Shown: piece by piece, positions 6,057 to 13,653 of the stretch
Layout: each line of letters starts with the position of its first letter
Numbering within the stretch: the stretch's first letter is position 1
Source: an uncultured Actinomycetes bacterium
GTDB taxonomy: Bacteria > Actinomycetota > UBA4738 > HRBIN12
Assembly (NCBI GenBank): GCA_963785835.1
Contig: CAWAWO010000005.1
Coordinates: 484,657 to 548,656, forward strand
DNA: 64,000 nucleotides
Reading direction: 5' to 3'
Position numbers and translations under genes: made by a program
Notes under the pieces: generated by a model
Seen by the model: the letters and a program-made list of their open reading frames with translations, nothing else
Database searches by the model: none
What the model was told of the DNA's origin: nothing

Positions 6057-6428
6057 ATGGTGTTCGGAATCCTTGCCCAAGAGGGCGGTGCGGCCGGCGG
6101 TTCGCTGATCGGCCTTGCGCTGCCCGTCCTCATGATCGTGGGCTTCTACTTCTTGCTCATCCGTCCGCAGCGCAACCGCCAGCGCGCCCAACAGGCGCTT
6201 CTCGCCTCCCTCGAGGTGGGGGACGATGTCATGACCACCGGAGGGATCTTCGGCACGATCATCGAGATCGATGACGACGAGGGCTACGTGATCGTGGAGA
6301 TCGCGCCCGGCACCCGCGTCCGGATGGTTCGTCAGGGGATCGCGCAGCGCTTCGTGGAGGATGAGGCCGGGTACGACGAGGACGAGGGCGGCGGGTCCGC
6401 CGACGAAGGGGTCGACCGGGAACCGTGA
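6057..6428 (+). CDS. yajC: Preprotein translocase subunit YajC
   Basis: FYFLLIRPQ, GDDVMTTGGIFGTI. Confidence 0.95.
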   Translation: MVFGILAQEGGAAGGSLIGLALPVLMIVGFYFLLIRPQRNRQRAQQALLASLEVGDDVMTTGGIFGTIIEIDDDEGYVIVEIAPGTRVRMVRQGIAQRFVEDEAGYDEDEGGGSADEGVDREP

Positions 6429-7162
6429 GCACGGAAGCAGCGCCCGGCGCGCGTTCGCTTGAGCCGGCGGTGGAACCGGAACCGGCGGTCGAGCCCGGAG
6501 GCGAAGGGATCACCCTCGAGCTGGTCCAGGACGATCCCGAGCTCTCGTCATTCATCACGGCGGCCGACCGCGTGATGGAGGGTCTGGGCTACACGGAGCA
6601 CGGCTTCCGGCACGCCAACCTCACCGCGCGCATCGCGTTCAACGTCCTGTCCCGCGCCGGGTTCGACGAGCACACGGCCAACCTGGCGTGCGTCGCCGGC
6701 TATCTCCATGACGTCGGAAACATGATCAGCCGCGAGGCGCACGGGCAGACCGGCGGCGTGCTCGTCTACCAGGCGCTCCGCGATCGGGTGCCGGCCGCCG
6801 ACCTGGCGCTGATCGTCTCGGCGGTCGCGAACCACGAGGAGGACAACGGCTACGCGGTCTCGCCGGTCTCGGCGGCCGTGATCCTGGCCGACAAGTCCGA
6901 CGTCCACCGGAGCCGGGTGCGCAAGTCCGGCCAGATCGAATTCGACATCCACGATCGCGTGAACTTCGCGGTCGAGCAGTCGTTCCTGCGGGTCGACTCG
7001 GCGGCCAAGACCGTGAGCCTGGAGCTCACGATCGATACGCAGATCAGCCAGGTCATGGAGTACTTCGAGATCTTCCTCGGCCGCATGCAGCTGTGCCGTC
7101 TGGCGGCCGAGGTGCTCGACTGCAAGTTCAAGCTGCTCATCAACGGCGCGGAGCTGGCATGA
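6425..7162 (+). CDS. HD-domain phosphohydrolase
   Basis: GYTEHGFRHA, YLHDVGN, ANHEE, ILADKSDVHRSRVR. Confidence 0.88.
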   Translation: MSTEAAPGARSLEPAVEPEPAVEPGGEGITLELVQDDPELSSFITAADRVMEGLGYTEHGFRHANLTARIAFNVLSRAGFDEHTANLACVAGYLHDVGNMISREAHGQTGGVLVYQALRDRVPAADLALIVSAVANHEEDNGYAVSPVSAAVILADKSDVHRSRVRKSGQIEFDIHDRVNFAVEQSFLRVDSAAKTVSLELTIDTQISQVMEYFEIFLGRMQLCRLAAEVLDCKFKLLINGAELA

Positions 7163-7181: not shown

Positions 7182-9188
7182 ATGAAGAAGCCGCGCGCCC
7201 TGTGGACGGCGATCGTGTTCGTCCTCCTGCTCGTTGCGGGCGGGATCGCCCTGCTCGTCACCGGGACGCAGCCCGTCCTCGGCCTGGACCTGAAGGGCGG
7301 GATCTCGGTGATCCTGTCGGCGCCGGAGGGCACCGAGGACGACGTGATGGATCAGGCGCTCGAGAACATCCGGAGCCGCATCGACGCGTTCGGCACCGCT
7401 GAGCCGTTGCTGTTCGTGACCGGCGACACGATCGAGGTCCAGATCCCCGGGCTCGCACAAGGCTCGATCGAGGAACGGCCGAAGACCCAGTTCTGCATCG
7501 CCGACACCGAGGGTGTCTCCTACGGCTGCTTCGAGGAGGAGCGGCCCGCCGACGCCGAGATCGAGGCCGCCGCGGTCGATCCCGTCGTGACCTCGGTATG
7601 CCTGGCCGGAGAGGCGTTCGGCAACGCTCCGCTGTGCTTCCCGACGCAGGAGGAGGCGGATGCCGCGCTCGAAGAGATCAGGATCCAGCGGCAGCAGCAG
7701 GAGTTCTGCTTCGCGGGAGCCGCCTTCGGAGAAGCGGCGCCCTGCTTCCCGACTCGCGACGAGGCCGAGACGCAGCTCGAGGGCGTCGACACCGTCGCGA
7801 CGCAGACCTTCTGCATCGCCGGCAGGCGCGACGCTACGCTGTCGAGTGACTTCGGCCCCGCGTGCCTCCCCACGACTGAGGAAGCCGAGACGCTGCTCTC
7901 CGAGCTCGAGGTTCAACGCTCGGACGCGGAGTTCTGCGTGCTGAGCTCGGCCGGCGAGAACCTCGGGTGCTTCCTGTCCAGGGAGGACGCCGAGGCGCGC
8001 CTGCAGGAGACCGGCCAAGAGCGTCTGCTGCAGGTGATCGGCCAGACCGCGCGGCTCGAACAGCGCGAGGTCCTCGAGGTCCTGACTGCCGCGACCCCCG
8101 GGTACGAAGCGGCGACGCTCACGTGTTCGACCGAGGCCGAGCAGGGAACGCCCGAGTGCTCCTTCGAGGAGCTTTCCGATCAAGAGGTCGTGTTCCTGGA
8201 CCGGGACGGGCGGACGAAGTATCGACTCGGCCCCGTCGAGCTCACCGGCGACGCGATCGATCAGGCGGCGGCGGTCCTGGACACCGGCGCGGCCGGCGCC
8301 GTCGGCCAGGGGTGGCAGATCCAGTTCGATCTCACCGATCAGGGGGCGGACACGTTCGCCGACGTGACGACGCGCCTCCAGGGTGGCCAACTCGCGATCG
8401 TCGTCGACCAGGAGGTGGTTTCGGCGCCGACCGTGCAGAGCGCGATCACCGGTGGCACCGGCGTGATCACGGGCAGCTTCACAGAGGCTCGCGCCAAGGA
8501 CCTCGCGACCCAGCTGAACGCCGGAGCCCTGCCGGTCGCGCTCACGACCCAGCAGGTGCAGACGGTCAGCCCGACGCTCGGGGACGAGTCGCTCCAGCAG
8601 GGGCTCGTCGCGGCGATCGCCGGACTCATCCTGCTGTGGATCTATCTCCTCTTCTACTACCGGGTCCTCGCGATCGTCGCCTGGATCGGGATGGCGATCT
8701 GGGCGTTGCTGGCGATCGCCCTCATCGCGCTCGCGGGACAGACGATCGGCTACAACCTGACGCTCGCCGGCGTCGCCGGCCTCGTGATCTCCCTCGGCGT
8801 GACCGCGGACTCCTACATCGTGTTCTTCGAGCGGCTGAAGGATGAGGTCCACGGCGGTAAGTCCCCCCGGTCGGCGGTCGGGCCCGGGTTCCAGCGGTCG
8901 TTCAAGACGATCGTCGCGGCCGACCTCGTGACCGCGATCGCGGCGCTCGTCCTGTACCTCACCGCGATCTCCTCCGTCCGCGGGTTCGCGCTCACGCTGG
9001 GCGTGGCCACCTTGCTCGACCTGTTCGTCGTGTACTTCTTCAAGCGCCCCGCGGTCTCGCTCCTCGTGCGAAGCGACCGAGCGGTCAACTGGCGCTGGTT
9101 CGGCGTGAAGGCGGGCCTCGCGGCCGACCGTGAGGCCGCGCCGGCCGCTCCCGCCCCGGCTCCCGCGATCGCCGGAGGGTCGGAGTGA
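7182..9188 (+). CDS. secD: Protein translocase subunit SecD with a Cys-rich repeat insertion
   Basis: LGLDLKGG, LAIVVDQEVVSAP, LNAGALP, VSPTLG, GVTADSYIVFFERLKDE, VRGFALTL. Confidence 0.96.
   Translation: MKKPRALWTAIVFVLLLVAGGIALLVTGTQPVLGLDLKGGISVILSAPEGTEDDVMDQALENIRSRIDAFGTAEPLLFVTGDTIEVQIPGLAQGSIEERPKTQFCIADTEGVSYGCFEEERPADAEIEAAAVDPVVTSVCLAGEAFGNAPLCFPTQEEADAALEEIRIQRQQQEFCFAGAAFGEAAPCFPTRDEAETQLEGVDTVATQTFCIAGRRDATLSSDFGPACLPTTEEAETLLSELEVQRSDAEFCVLSSAGENLGCFLSREDAEARLQETGQERLLQVIGQTARLEQREVLEVLTAATPGYEAATLTCSTEAEQGTPECSFEELSDQEVVFLDRDGRTKYRLGPVELTGDAIDQAAAVLDTGAAGAVGQGWQIQFDLTDQGADTFADVTTRLQGGQLAIVVDQEVVSAPTVQSAITGGTGVITGSFTEARAKDLATQLNAGALPVALTTQQVQTVSPTLGDESLQQGLVAAIAGLILLWIYLLFYYRVLAIVAWIGMAIWALLAIALIALAGQTIGYNLTLAGVAGLVISLGVTADSYIVFFERLKDEVHGGKSPRSAVGPGFQRSFKTIVAADLVTAIAALVLYLTAISSVRGFALTLGVATLLDLFVVYFFKRPAVSLLVRSDRAVNWRWFGVKAGLAADREAAPAAPAPAPAIAGGSE
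7485..8015 (+). repeat. Five tandem protein-level repeats (about 35 aa; FC..G..CFPT.EEA) inside secD
   Basis: FCIADTEGVSYGCFEEE / VCLAGEAFGNAPLCFPTQEEA / FCFAGAAFGEAAPCFPTRDEA / FCIAGRRDATLSSDFGPACLPTTEEA / FCVLSSAGENLGCFLSREDA. Confidence 0.85.
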
Positions 9189-10330
9189 GCATCCGACGCG
9201 CGTTCGATACGTTCCGCGGATACCGGCATCCCGAATTCCGCATCATCCAGCAGCGCCGCCGCTGGGCGATCGTCTCCGCGGTCGTGATCGCCCTGTCGCT
9301 GCTCGGCTTGCTCTGGCGCGGCCTGAACCTGTCGATCGACTTCACCGGTGGAACGCTGATCGAGTACGAGCTCGCGAGCGACGTGACCGTCGACGAGATC
9401 CGCGAGCTCCTGGAGTCCGACCCGTACGCCCGCGAGAGCGCCGAGGTCCAGATCGCCGGCGGTGACAGGGTCTCGATCCGGACGAGTGCGCTCACCGACC
9501 TGTCGGCCGAGGAACGCACGCAGCTGTTCGACGCGCTCGCCGAGCAGGCGGGGATCCCGGCGGACGACATCAGCGCGCAGGTGGTGGGCCCGACGTGGGG
9601 CGAACAGATCTCGCGTCAGGCGCTTTTCGGACTCCTGATCGTCCTGGCGGCGATCACCCTGTACATCACGCTGCGGTTCGAATGGAAGATGGCGCTCGGG
9701 GCGATGGTCGCGATGGTGCACGACGTGGTGGTCACGGCCGGCGTCTACGCGCTCACCGGCCGGGAGGTCTCGCCGGCGACGGTGATCGCCATCCTGACGA
9801 TCCTCGGGTTCTCCCTCTACGACACCGTGGTGATCTACGACAAGGTCAATGAGAACGTCGAGTCCACCGCGGCGCTCGGCAAGGACACGTACGAGGGGGT
9901 CGCCAACGCGTCCATGAACCAGGTGCTGATGCGCTCGGTCAACACGTCGCTCGTCGTCGTGCTCCCGATCCTGTCGCTGCTCCTGTTCGGAGGGGCGACG
10001 CTCAAGGACTTCGCCTTCGCGATGTTGATCGGTGTCATCACGGGCGCGTACTCGTCGATCTTCGTTGCCACCCCGATCCTCGTCGTGCTGAAGGAGCGCG
10101 AACCGCGCTACCAGCAGCTCCGGGCGCGGATCGAGGGCCGTCCGAGCGCCCGGCGCCTGCAGGCCGTGCCCGCGCCGGTGCCCGCTCAGGAGGAGGAGCC
10201 GGAGGTCGCGCAGCAGGAGCTCGCGGCGGCGGCATCGTCGTCGTCTTCGACGCGGCGCCCCGGCACCACGTCGTCCCGGCCACGCCCCAAGAGCAAGCGG
10301 CGCCCGCCCGCCAAACGCCGGCGGAGGTGA
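9185..10330 (+). CDS. secF: Protein translocase subunit SecF
   Basis: IDFTGG, VGPTWG, HDV, GFSLYDTVVIYDKVNEN, GAYSSIF. Confidence 0.97.
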   Translation: MSIRRAFDTFRGYRHPEFRIIQQRRRWAIVSAVVIALSLLGLLWRGLNLSIDFTGGTLIEYELASDVTVDEIRELLESDPYARESAEVQIAGGDRVSIRTSALTDLSAEERTQLFDALAEQAGIPADDISAQVVGPTWGEQISRQALFGLLIVLAAITLYITLRFEWKMALGAMVAMVHDVVVTAGVYALTGREVSPATVIAILTILGFSLYDTVVIYDKVNENVESTAALGKDTYEGVANASMNQVLMRSVNTSLVVVLPILSLLLFGGATLKDFAFAMLIGVITGAYSSIFVATPILVVLKEREPRYQQLRARIEGRPSARRLQAVPAPVPAQEEEPEVAQQELAAAASSSSSTRRPGTTSSRPRPKSKRRPPAKRRRR

Positions 10331-10334
10331 TCTC

Positions 10335-10856
10335 GTGGAGATCGAACAGCTGAAGGCGCTCGTCCGCGACGTGCCCGATTTCCCCCAGGAGGGGATCGTC
10401 TTCAAGGACATCACGCCGCTGCTCGCGGACGAGCTCGCGTTCTCGACGGTGATCGACCTGACCGTGGTGCACTTCGGTCGCGGCAACGTCGACAAGGTGG
10501 TGGGGATAGAGGCCCGCGGGTTCATCCTGGCGTCGCCGGTCGCGTATCACTTCGGCGCCGGGTTCGTGCCCGTCCGAAAGGTGGACAAGCTCCCCTGGGA
10601 GACCGAGTCCGCCGAGTACGAGCTCGAGTACGGGACGGCCACCCTCGAGATCCACCGGGACGCGGTCGCCGCGGGCGAGCGGGTGCTGATCGTCGACGAC
10701 GTGCTCGCGACAGGGGGGACCGCGAGGGCGACGGCCGAGCTCGTCGAACGCATCGGCGGCAAGGTCGTCGGCATCGCGTGCCTGATCGAGCTCGGGTTCC
10801 TGAACGGGCGGGACAAGCTCGAGGGATACGACCTGTTCACGCTGCTCCGCTACTAG
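10335..10856 (+). CDS. apt: Adenine phosphoribosyltransferase
   Basis: PDFPQEGIVFKDITPLL, GIEARGF, YELEYG, VDDVLATGGT. Confidence 0.97.
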   Translation: MEIEQLKALVRDVPDFPQEGIVFKDITPLLADELAFSTVIDLTVVHFGRGNVDKVVGIEARGFILASPVAYHFGAGFVPVRKVDKLPWETESAEYELEYGTATLEIHRDAVAAGERVLIVDDVLATGGTARATAELVERIGGKVVGIACLIELGFLNGRDKLEGYDLFTLLRY

Positions 10857-10924
10857 GCGGCCCCGACGCTCCGAGGCCGTCGCCGCCGCACCCGCGCGTA
10901 CACTCCCGGTGCGGAGGTGGGCTC

Positions 10925-13184
10925 GTGGACAGCGAGGAGCAGGTCAAGACCGAGCGTCGAGGCGGTCTGCTCTCGCGCCTTCGCCCCGGCGACTCCGAGC
11001 CGCGGGACGGGCTCGACGCGCTCGTCCGCACCGTCAAGGGGTACAACGCCAAGGCGGACTTCAAGGAGATCGAGCGGGCCTACCGGTTCGCCGCCGAGCA
11101 CCACGAGGGCCAGAAGCGCCTGTCGGGCGAGGAGTTCATCGAGCACCCGCTCGCCGTGGCGCAGATCCTGGCCGACCTCGGGCTCGACACGACGACGCTC
11201 GAGGCGGCGCTCCTGCACGACACGGTCGAGGACACCGACGTCACGGTCGACGGCCTGGAGGCCGAGTTCGGGCCCGAGGTGGCGCGGATCGTCGACGGGC
11301 TGACCAAGCTCGACGCGCTCTCGTTCCGCAGCCGCGAGCACGAGCAGGCGGAGAACGTCCGCAAGATGATCGTCGCGATGGCGGGCGACATCCGCGTGCT
11401 GCTGATCAAGCTCGCCGACCGACTCCACAACATGCGGACGCTCTCCGCGCTCCCTCCCGACAAGCAAGGGCGGATCGCGACCGCCACGCTCGAGATCTAC
11501 GCGCCGCTCGCGCACCGTCTCGGCGTTCAGCAGGTGAAGTGGGAGCTCGAGGATCTCTCGTTCAAGACGCTCCACCCTGGCCCGTACCGAGAGATCGCGA
11601 GCCTGGTCGAACGGCGCCGGGGCGAGCGGCAACAGTACGTCGACGCGGTGCTCGAGGCCGCCCGTACACGACTGCGGGAGTCCGGGGTCAAGGCGGAAGT
11701 CATCGGCCGCCCGAAGCACCTGTACTCGATCTACGAGAAGATGGTGATCGGCGGCAAAGAGTTCAACGAGATCTACGATCTCGCCGGCGTCCGGATCCTC
11801 GTCGCCTCGATCCGAGACGTTTATGGGGCGCTCGGCGCCGTACATTCCCTGTGGAAGCCCGTGCCCGGGCGCTTCAAGGACTACGTCGCGATGCCCAAGA
11901 ACAACATGTACCAGTCGTTGCATACGACCGTGGTCGGACCCCAGGGGCGCCCGATCGAGGTGCAGATCCGGACGAAGGACATGCACCGAACGGCCGAGTT
12001 CGGGATCGCGGCGCACTGGCGCTACAAGGAAGGACGCGACGGGAAGAAGGCGAAGGAGGCCGCCGACCTCGCGTGGCTCGGCCAGATGCTCGAATGGCTG
12101 AAGGACATGGCCGACCCCCGCGAGTTCATGGAGGGCCTGAAGATCGACCTGTACGGCGGCCAGGTCTTCTGCTTCACGCCGAAGGGCGACGTGCTGAACC
12201 TGCCGGCGGGTGCCACGCCGGTGGACTTCGCCTACTCGATCCACACCGAGGTCGGCCACCGGACGATCGGCGCGAAGGTGAACGGCAAGCTGGTGCCGCT
12301 CGACTACGAGCTTCGGACCGGCGACACGGTGGAGATCCTGACCTCGAAGGCGCAGGGCGAGGGACCCTCGCGCGACTGGCTGCGCTGGGTGAAGACGCCT
12401 CGAGCGCGCAACAAGATCCGACAGTGGTTCAGCCGCGAGCGCCGAGAGGACGCGCTCGAGGACGGGCGCGAGCAGCTCCAGCGCCTGATGCGCAAGCAGA
12501 ACGTCCCGCTCAAGCGGCTGGCCACCGAGGAGGCGCTCGAACAGCTCGCGGACGAGATGAAGTTCCCGAGTCTCGAGTCGCTCTACGTGGCGGTCGGGGA
12601 GGGGCACGTCTCGCCGCAGTCGATCGTCGCGCGCCTCGGACGGTCGCTCCAGGGCACGACCGAGGAGGACGTCACCGAGGTGCCGCTCGCGCGCCCGGTC
12701 CGCATCGGCGAGCCCACCGCCACCACCGACGTGACGTCGGGCGTGGAGGTCCCCGGGTCGGCGGACGTCTGGGTGCGGCTCGCCCGCTGCTGCACGCCGG
12801 TCCCCGGCGACGACATCCTGGGGTTCGTGACCCGCGGGCACGGGGGTGAGCGTCCACCGAACGGACTGCCCCAACGCGAAGTCGCTCCTCGCGCAGCCCG
12901 AACGGCTGATCGACGTCACGTGGCGTGCCGGCAAGCCGACTTCGTTCGTCGTCGCAGTGCAGGTCGATGCGCTGGACCGAACCCGGCTGCTCTCCGACGT
13001 CGCGACGGTCCTGTCGGACCATCACGTGAACATCCTCTCCGCCACCACCGCCGTCGGCCGGGACCACACGACGACGCTACGGTTCACGTTCGAGCTCGGC
13101 GACATCGCGCACCTCACCGAGATCCTGGGAGCGATCAAGAAGGTCGAGAACGTCTACGACGCGTTCCGCGTCGTCCCGCGTTGA
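10925..13184 (+). CDS. relA: Bifunctional (p)ppGpp synthetase/hydrolase Rel (one extra G near 12842-12846)
   Basis: HD domain (ALLHDTVED), RFKDY, YQSLHT, TGS, ZFD (RCCTPVPGD), ACT domain in the shifted frame; GGAGG RBS upstream. Confidence 0.95.
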
Positions 13185-13209
13185 GGGTCGTTCCGAGGGT
13201 CGTTCGGCG

Positions 13210-13653
13210 TTGAGGATCCTGCTCCAGCGGGTCGCCCGCGCTTCCGTCACGGTCCGGGGCGATCTCGTCGCCGAGATCGGTTCGGGGTTCCTGCTCCTGG
13301 TGGGCGTCGGGAAGGACGACGGGTTCGGCGAGTACGACCGTCTGGCCGAGAAGGTCCACAACCTCCGGGTCTTCGAGGACGAGCAGGGCAAGATGAACCG
13401 GTCGCTGTCCGATGTCGGGGGCGAGATCCTCGTCGTTCCGCAGTTCACGCTGTACGGCGACGTTCGCAAGGGACGCAGGCCGTCGTGGGACGGTGCCGCG
13501 CCACCCAAGATCGCCGAGGACCGGGTTGAGGCGTTCGCGAAGGCGCTCGAAAGCCGCGGGGCGACGGTCAAGCGCGGGGCGTTTCGCGAGCACATGCAGG
13601 TGGAGCTCGTGAACGACGGCCCCGTCACGCTCTGGATCGACGCTCAGGATTAA
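13210..13653 (+). CDS. dtd: D-aminoacyl-tRNA deacylase
   Basis: LQRV, LRVFEDEQGKMN, QFTLYGD, NDGPVT. Confidence 0.96.
   Translation: MRILLQRVARASVTVRGDLVAEIGSGFLLLVGVGKDDGFGEYDRLAEKVHNLRVFEDEQGKMNRSLSDVGGEILVVPQFTLYGDVRKGRRPSWDGAAPPKIAEDRVEAFAKALESRGATVKRGAFREHMQVELVNDGPVTLWIDAQD

Follow-up and report, generated by a model that had tools for sequence, protein, structure and literature searches.

SecDF is a proton-driven export motor, and its P1 base is usually viewed as a conserved platform below a mobile head. We analyzed a 64,000-nucleotide (nt) stretch of DNA from an uncultured Actinomycetes bacterium (contig CAWAWO010000005.1; "the window" below means this whole stretch) that encodes a SecD whose P1 base is interrupted by an insert of five tandem cysteine-paired modules. 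Outside the insert, the whole protein, its fold and the adjoining secF gene are like those of the known SecDF motor (TIGR01129; structures 3aqp, 5xan and 5yhf). The difference lies in about 180 extra residues that split the P1 base. A review of SecDF (PMC5974789) describes an eight-stranded sheet, formed by the P1 base and P4, that can become a closed barrel in the course of the cycle while the head swings over it.

An outward extension confined to one lineage has a counterpart elsewhere in Actinomycetota. MmpL5, also a protein of the RND superfamily, is reported to carry a periplasmic coiled-coil tube of this kind (PMC12501195). The MmpL5 tube is an alpha-helical coiled coil with a role in drug export, whereas the SecD array is a sheet-plus-helix repeat; we found no relation between the two in sequence or fold. 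The modules of the array do have relatives in a hairpin-helix motif of phage proteins. Among the papers listed by full-text searches, we found no description of either the SecD insert or the phage motif. The insert is a new variation on the known SecDF machine, and with it comes an unannotated mini-domain family.

Results

Five cysteine-paired modules split the P1 base of SecD

The product of the gene is a true SecD, as identified by its TIGR01129 match, its Pfam domains and its fold. The NCBIfam equivalog model for secD (TIGR01129) reached 313.1 bits, above its cut-off of 244.4. The match is divided in two by the insert, and its second stretch picks up again at amino acid (aa) 279. The Pfam family SecD_1st matched aa 56-92 through positions 1-38 of its 60 profile positions only, and the split point of the P1 base lies between profile positions 38 and 39. 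An AlphaFold2 model of the full-length protein (mean predicted local distance difference test, pLDDT, 78.8) contains a helix at residues 4-26, a mixed alpha/beta region at 40-462 and helices at 467-635. Searching with this model in Foldseek gave the SecDF structure 5xan as the best match (E 3e-22), and the top matches were SecDF structures. D543 and R563 in the transmembrane (TM) region are invariant in a 67-row alignment of full-length SecDs.

The modules are about 31-37 aa long, and each of the five contains exactly two cysteines (Table 1). The stretch from IEVQIPG to LLQVIG spans 191 aa in this SecD, compared with 13 aa in relatives that have no module (loci L027 and L028). A first-pass annotation, made from the letters of the window and a list of its open reading frames (ORFs), had proposed a five-fold Cys-pair repeat in P1, a large extra segment past IEVQIPG and an intact secD frame. 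All three proposals hold. The coordinates and residues of the repeat were verified by translation, the ORF is open over its 668 aa, and two profiles find the same five places.

The first of these profiles was built from all modules. Run against a six-frame translation of the 2.61-Mb genome, it found the five SecD domains and nothing else (next best E 1.2). The second profile was built from 18 modules of other families, without those of the bacterium's own family, to avoid circularity. It matched this SecD at the five expected places with a whole-protein E of 5.3e-23, giving 41.4 bits for module 5 and 8-16 bits for the remaining modules, and in the six-frame genome it matched only SecD (next best E 6). 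These results show that the repeat in SecD is real and that, in this genome, it is SecD-specific. Tandem Repeats Finder (TRF), run on the DNA, reported only four short runs and no repeat corresponding to the modules. Because the repeat is not visible at the DNA level, the copies are old.

The repeat had not been recognized as a named domain, and searches of the insert and of single modules agreed: nothing in Pfam, NCBIfam or PHROGs passed its cut-off. The weak rows were SPOR (PF05036, E 0.17 on the insert), DUF7336 (PF24024, E 0.14-0.17) and PHROGs entries (E at least 0.15), and six of the seven SecD modules scanned returned no family whatever at E up to 10. SPOR, DUF7336 and DUF2188 share a weak, local hairpin-then-helix likeness with the module, and none reached its curated cut-off on any SecD module. 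The insert had also been called acidic. This is correct for the SecD studied here, which has 38 Asp and Glu residues in the insert against 11 Lys and Arg, but the charge is not conserved: over 32 orthologs, the net charge of the insert varies between an excess of 30 acidic residues and an excess of 3 basic ones.

The closest relatives of the module are found in phage proteins

We ran a 31-position module profile over 1.84 billion representative proteins and obtained 107 matches at E <= 1e-3. About 61 of these are SecDs or SecD fragments (in a BLAST comparison with the SecD set, 51 were plainly SecD and about 10 more were fragments), and about 41 are not SecD. Four matches, which are Cys-rich repeat proteins or proteins without the motif, look spurious. 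The non-SecD matches carry Peptidase_S78, Mu-like_Pro, Peptidase_S78_2, DUF2213 or DUF5661 domains, or are unannotated proteins of about 60 aa. PHROGs identified one portal protein and head-maturation proteases among them, and the best non-SecD match was P0141 (E 4.4e-15). The first-pass annotation had suggested a profile search for other proteins with the repeat, and this search found the same motif in phage proteases and portal proteins as well as in small standalone proteins. Judged by sequence, the closest relatives of the SecD module proved to be phage head-assembly proteins.

In the phage-type proteins, the motif detected by the profile follows the pattern [FWY]-C-[VIL]-x(8-10)-G-C-[YFH]-x-[TS]-x(3)-A-x(3)-L. 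The consensus of the phage and small proteins is RGGEFCVFSEDGKNLGCYPTREEAEARL, and an example of a single SecD module is ERDGQFCVISSADKNLGC. The matched stretch of a phage protease, ERDGQFCVVSEDGSETLGCHDTREEA, is similarly close to its SecD counterpart, ERDGQFCVISSADKNLGCEDSREEA. The phage motif and the SecD module are alike in their length of about 30 aa, their C-x10/11-C spacing, the pairwise behavior of their cysteines, their occurrence in tandem (two or three copies in some phage proteins) and in matching each other by profile in both directions. A profile made from 57 non-SecD copies, which had been picked by the SecD profile, found SecD alone in this genome (E 4.7e-22), with module 5 scoring best at 38.6 bits. 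The contexts differ. Phage copies are joined to a protease or a portal, or form a protein of their own, and are presumably cytoplasmic, whereas the SecD copies lie in an exported loop, come in fives and have diverged in modules 1-4. In the residue directly after the second Cys, 17 of the 57 phage copies have His, where SecD modules have F, Y or L. The resemblance between the phage motif and the SecD module is one of sequence.

The standalone family of about 60 aa comprises 481 proteins at E <= 1e-3, and the small-protein motif occurs in 229 records of cultured phages. Among 120 standalone relatives checked, 119 have both cysteines, none has one and one has neither. The motif at the N-terminus of a Yersinia phage prohead protease also has neither Cys. 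Members of the standalone family (for example P0176, P0193, P0211, P0212, P0217, P0218 and P0222, and L085:509-664) follow the pattern K-R-G-x-x-[FW]-C-V-x-S-K-x-G-K-N-L-G-C-[YF]-P-T...R-L-R-Q-I-E-F-F-K.

No Pfam or NCBIfam family covers the motif shared by phage proteins and SecD. The standalone family and the phage motif match parts of phrog_3684 and phrog_2859, both of which are labeled "unknown function". DUF2188 (PF09954) matched the module position of the phage protein P0160 with E 1.6e-4 and 22.2 bits against a cut-off of 22, a borderline result in which no stretch passes alone. On the seven SecD modules scanned, DUF2188 gave no match at E up to 10 and did not reach its gathering score. 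Sequence searches of the Protein Data Bank (PDB) with the module and small-protein profiles gave nothing below E 0.14, and a tblastn search of cultured phages with the insert gave no match.

Module number varies by family: zero, one or five

The class to which this bacterium belongs, within Actinomycetota, comprises 294 genomes in one order and eight families (f1 to f8), and two class tallies include 9 and 13 unpublished genomes. At E <= 0.001, the module profile matched 227 of the 294 genomes. The match counts below come from this profile search, and the module numbers come from extracted sequences. Five modules are found in f1 (match in 206 of 222 genomes), apart from one genus with a single module, and in f3 (2 of 2). 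SecDs with one module are found in f2 (3 of 3), f4 (1 of 1), f7 (13 of 27) and f6 (1 of 9). Families f5 and f8 have no module, with matches in 0 of 2 and 0 of 27 genomes, respectively. Unpublished genomes contributed to the f6 examples (G029, with the same result in G039) and to the f8 examples (G037, with the same result in G031). SecD copy number of the module is therefore 0, 1 or 5 by family, and the variation in repeat number that the first-pass annotation thought worth searching for does exist.

Closer to the bacterium studied, a SecD match was present in 40 of 41 related genomes, and every full-length SecD extracted from its own genus has five modules and 10 Cys. Two loci deserve mention in their own right. 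At G192:C1:520844-521298, the open frames that carry the module region are short (276 and 127 aa), which points to a frameshift. Genome G106 has two near-identical copies of a five-module secD on contigs C260 and C157 (L087 and L088), maybe through strain mixture or duplication.

Outside the class, weak matches came from only 2 of 369 genomes sampled in the phylum, and neither lies in SecD. The match in G618, which shows no motif on inspection, is treated as a chance one, and the match in G528 is a 67-aa standalone copy of the phage type. We also searched 5.8 billion proteins with the insert and obtained 231 matches; among the matches listed, all 120 carry SecD domains. The few that came with a source name were called SecD, and those from NCBI were labeled Actinomycetota bacterium.

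The module cysteines are conserved and lost in pairs

Conservation of the cysteines in orthologs had been named as a test of the repeat, and the cysteines proved to be conserved. All 10 insert Cys are invariant in an alignment of 32 inserts from many genera, and across the 67 aligned full-length SecDs each is at least 90% conserved. Among the database matches listed, 116 of 120 SecDs have 10 Cys in the insert. Three others (P0059, P0068 and P0111) have eight, with both cysteines of module 3 replaced, and the last, which comes from a single 2.4-kb contig, has nine. In L069, from a closed genome, both cysteines of module 1 are gone. The two cysteines of a module are thus coupled in evolution and are usually lost as a pair, as would be expected of the staple that the earlier annotation had in mind. 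Outside the insert, the database SecDs have just two or three Cys.

The distance between paired cysteines is variable. It ranges from 8 to 70 residues, and the flanking residues are fixed. The longest loops are found in module 4, which in other genera contains Pro/Ser/Thr-rich inserts that leave up to 70 residues between its cysteines. The overall pattern is one that a staple within each module predicts, and it fits poorly with metal sites shared between modules. In each module, the two cysteines are most likely joined by a cross-strand disulfide on the outer face of the membrane.

A sixth Cys pair had been noted in the head region. It is present as C315 and C326, just before the Pfam match to the P1 head, but gave no match to the module profile. 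Of the two residues, C315 is invariant in the 67-row alignment, and conservation of C326 reaches at least 90%. A pair of this type is present in the zero-module loci L027 and L028 and is not present in the f7 and f8 examples. The pre-head pair varies on its own schedule (loci L029, L080, L079, L082, L077 and L078): in f1 to f5 there is a single pair whose loop is 10-15 or more residues long, four Cys occur in two f6 genomes, and the f7 and f8 examples have none.

Structure prediction suggests a single rigid array

AlphaFold2 modeled the insert alone (197 aa, 32-row alignment) with a pLDDT of 92.1 and a predicted TM-score (pTM) of 0.74. In the full-length model, the blocks of the insert have a pLDDT of about 75-87. 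Each module is predicted to run from a long strand (11-13 residues) through a short one to a helix of 10 residues, in agreement with the hairpin and helix proposed for each repeat by the first-pass annotation, and the five modules form one confident body. The high pTM of the insert model suggests that the array is one rigid body, not beads on a string. In the insert model, the helix of the last module continues into the base helix of SecD. The first strand of every module contains its first Cys, and the short second strand contains the second Cys in modules 1, 2 and 5. As read from the sequence and the DSSP string, a C-x10-C spacing with its usual Gly in the middle would let the two cysteines face each other across a tight hairpin.

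Several genera contain Pro/Ser/Thr-rich segments, 10-60 residues long, at two sites: the turn that joins modules 2 and 3, and the interior of the module 4 hairpin. These segments occur in the unpublished genome G209 and likewise in G024, G181, G091, G103, G097, G060 and G042. At such sites a loop can bulge out and leave the array intact.

Neither solved structures nor predicted viral ones offered a convincing likeness of the array. Foldseek with the insert model against the PDB returned one row below 1e-3, the contractile-injection baseplate chain 7b5h_AD, which we do not read as sharing the fold (TM-score 0.22, root-mean-square deviation [rmsd] 13). Among 48,161 chains compared by VIA-align, the best reached a Z of 6.2 over 57 residues, within the range that the tool describes as a common arrangement. 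The alignment to 6q2z, which we take to be a UPF0339/YegP-like small beta-alpha protein, falls within the same range (Z 5.0, 50 residues aligned, rmsd 3.3). In BFVD, the insert model matched nothing below 1e-3 and gave one weak 60-aa match (probability 0.82, E 0.29). The nearest ESM Atlas clusters to aa 93-280 were SecD_1st at 0.83-0.85, below the level that the tool treats as more than a lead. We also considered whether the module is a duplicate of the P1 base's own hairpin and helix and dropped this idea, as there was no profile signal.

The insert is under purifying selection

In eight within-genus pairs, the ratio of nonsynonymous to synonymous substitution rates (dN/dS) of the insert was 0.23-0.52, compared with 0.03-0.15 for the TM region and 0.07-0.47 for the head. 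The insert had the highest value of the four regions compared in six of the eight pairs. These values show that the insert is under purifying selection. The constraint is unevenly distributed: mean pairwise identity is 0.68 for module 5 and 0.39-0.45 for modules 1-4. Besides the cysteines, the residues conserved in modules 1-4 are the Ala and Leu of the helix. Because conservation in modules 1-4 is confined to Cys, Ala and Leu and the net charge varies, the scaffold is kept while the surfaces drift.

The secD locus

On the + strand of the window, the gene order is ruvB, a yajC-like ORF, an HD-domain gene, secD, secF, apt and relA (Table 1). The names ruvB, yajC, apt and relA were read off the translations, and the 123-aa ORF is presumably yajC given the actinobacterial gene order. 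The HD-domain gene matches Pfam HD at E 9e-4, below the cut-off, and HDIG at E 9e-4. The gene also precedes secD in 13 of 14 related loci, where its identity is 67-94%, and it is better conserved than SecD. The C-terminus of SecF (about 10110-10330) is a low-complexity tail of about 70 residues that is rich in Ala, Ser, Pro, Arg and Lys (SSSSSTRRPGTTSSRPRPKSKRRPPAKRRRR) and extends past the end of SecD_SecF_C at aa 304. The relA ORF (10778-13213) changes frame just past GFVTRG (window 12821-13240). The +1 frame carries the expected ...VSVHRTDCPNA... and the full C-terminal domain to its stop, and the listed ORF runs into Arg/Pro-rich nonsense. Either this frameshift is genuine or the assembly contains an indel error here.

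Table 1. Positions of secD, its parts and adjacent genes in the window
Feature	Position (nt)	Strand	Details
ORF read as yajC	6057..6428	+	123 aa; read from position and sequence only
HD-domain gene	6425-7162	+	245 aa; between the yajC-like ORF and secD; start overlaps the stop of the yajC-like ORF
secD	7182..9188	+	668 aa; open frame by ORF list and translation
P1 base, first part	7347..7457	+	aa 56-92; SecD_1st match; ends in the IEVQIPG hairpin
Lineage-specific insert with five tandem Cys-pair modules	7458..8012	+	aa 93-277; about 180 residues; splits the P1 base
Module 1	7485..7577	+	aa 102-132; C105, C116
Module 2	7590..7685	+	aa 137-168; C140, C152
Module 3	7698..7793	+	aa 173-204; C176, C188
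Module 4	7803..7913	+	aa 208-244; C211, C228; longer C-x16-C loop
Module 5	7926..8018	+	aa 249-279; C252, C263
P1 base, resumed	8016..8084	+	aa 279-301; helix ERLLQVIGQ and strand ARLEQREV
Separate Cys pair, not a module	8124..8159	+	C315...C326; just before the Pfam P1-head match
P1 head subdomain	8202..8537	+	aa 341-452; SecDF_P1_head (PF22599), E 1.7e-28
TM SecD/SecF C-terminal domain	8541..9059	+	aa 454-626; SecD_SecF_C (PF02355)
secF	9185..10330	+	start overlaps secD stop; SecD_SecF_C (E 9e-62) and Sec_GG

Discussion

We favor, with slightly better than even confidence, the reading that the five-copy mini-domain array is a Cys-stapled, non-catalytic structural arm that serves as a spacer or guide on the P1 base. 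The array consists of five copies of an autonomous mini-domain of about 30 aa, predicted as a hairpin with one Cys per strand followed by a short helix. It sits between the IEVQIPG hairpin, which it follows directly, and the helix ERLLQVIG. One copy would have been acquired, or would have arisen, at this site early in the class. This first copy would be today's module 5 and the single module of f2, f4, f6 and f7. Module 5 looks ancestral: it is the most conserved and the most phage-like module, and it is the one with a single-module counterpart. Capture from a phage-type gene is more likely than the reverse, given how widely the motif occurs in phages and how narrowly in SecD. Later duplication would have led to five copies in f1 and f3, and Pro/Ser/Thr-rich loops would have been added at the hairpin tips in several genera. 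The five modules are predicted to pack into one rigid sheet-plus-helix body, which would enlarge the immobile P1 base next to the moving P1 head. The arm may serve as a spacer or guiding surface close to the wall in these presumably single-membraned bacteria, and not as a specific binding or redox site.

Several observations weigh against this arm. The single module in the SecD of one f1 genus (G048) indicates that modules 1-4 are dispensable at least there. Between f1 and f3, position-by-position orthology of the modules is clear for modules 1 and 5 only. The reciprocal test with the phage profile is not fully independent, because its 57 copies were selected with the SecD profile. As the phage copies are presumably cytoplasmic, a conserved Cys pair need not mean a disulfide. 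The enzymes that would form disulfides are also sparse. VKOR, DsbB, DSBA and Thioredoxin_4 were not found in the bacterium's own genome (G000, 82% complete), in G009 (95% complete) or in the closed genome G085, and VKOR was found in none of nine other genomes of the genus. DsbA and DsbB were looked for in five class genomes only; DsbB was in none of the five, G103 has VKOR and DSBA, and G024 has DSBA. VKOR was present in 27 of the 121 class genomes searched for it (G000 and 120 requested at >= 90% completeness) and in 23 of 94 f1 genomes. The array persists without the known oxidases. Predicted exported proteins with an even number of cysteines outnumber those with an odd number (87 to 77, against 1321 to 1713 in the control; Fisher p 0.019, with crude gene calls and signal-peptide rules), which amounts to a weak even bias. 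Either disulfides form without known enzymes or the Cys pairs serve another purpose.

The scarcity of oxidases also bears on a different view of the cysteines, in which six Cys pairs next to the Sec exit would swap disulfides with exported proteins in place of the missing DsbA and VKOR. The strict conservation of the pairs on the outer side of the membrane agrees with such a role, as do the absences from G000, G009, G085 and the nine other genomes of the genus. We nevertheless consider a redox relay highly improbable, because the insert has no CxxC and no match to the thioredoxin family, because modules lose both cysteines together while the protein persists, and because the VKOR-bearing genera represented by G103, G073 and G082 keep the same array. 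DsbA-like oxidoreductases hold a CxxC within a thioredoxin fold; the cysteines of the SecD insert are instead spaced from C-x8 to C-x20 and beyond, across a hairpin, and module copies without any Cys exist. Metal sites built by the cysteines of neighboring modules, such as Zn-Cys4, would account for the even number of Cys and could draw on the His that follows the second Cys in the 17 phage copies. They are extremely improbable all the same: single-module SecDs have only two insert Cys, each loss takes the two cysteines of one module and not four, and SecD modules place F, Y or L where the phage copies may have His. The first-pass annotation had read the repeats as disulfide-stapled modules that form an arm on SecDF, possibly for substrate capture, wall spanning or redox chemistry. 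That interpretation is partly supported, in that each repeat is predicted as a hairpin plus helix, the two cysteines of a module behave as a coupled pair and no named family matches.

Two further explanations concern what the array does and not how it is held together. In one, the exposed edge strands would bind the unfolded chain leaving SecYEG by strand addition and, with the P1 head, hold it or prevent it from sliding back. The insert sits in the periplasmic part of SecDF that, according to the SecDF review (PMC5974789), interacts with unfolded protein. Each module is predicted to offer a long strand of 12-13 residues, and the array is under purifying selection. A binding surface is nonetheless hard to reconcile with the poor conservation of the surfaces and net charge of modules 1-4, with the f1 genus that has one module and with whole families that have none, and we regard this explanation as unlikely. 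A fuller version, in which a captured phage-type mini-domain was amplified into an arm that actively handles exported chains by strand addition and possibly passes disulfides to them, seems to us quite unlikely. At the other extreme, the array could be a tolerated passenger, a mini-domain that landed in a permissive loop and was expanded by unequal recombination, with no role beyond folding harmlessly. Copy numbers of 0, 1 or 5, the collapse to one module in an f1 genus, the tolerance of disordered Pro/Ser/Thr-rich loops within the array and the highest dN/dS of the four regions in six of eight pairs would all suit a passenger. That the five modules and all 10 Cys have been kept across many f1 genera and in f3, with dN/dS well below 1, makes it decidedly unlikely.

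A class of Actinomycetota has rebuilt the P1 base with an array of zero, one or five modules, and this offers a natural series on the effect of extra outer mass in a proton-driven export motor. The comparison also exposes an unannotated Cys-paired mini-domain of about 30 aa, for which the exported, five-fold cellular version provides a second context for study. Finally, conserved outer Cys pairs in bacteria without a recognizable Dsb or VKOR system raise the question of how, if at all, their exported proteins become oxidized.

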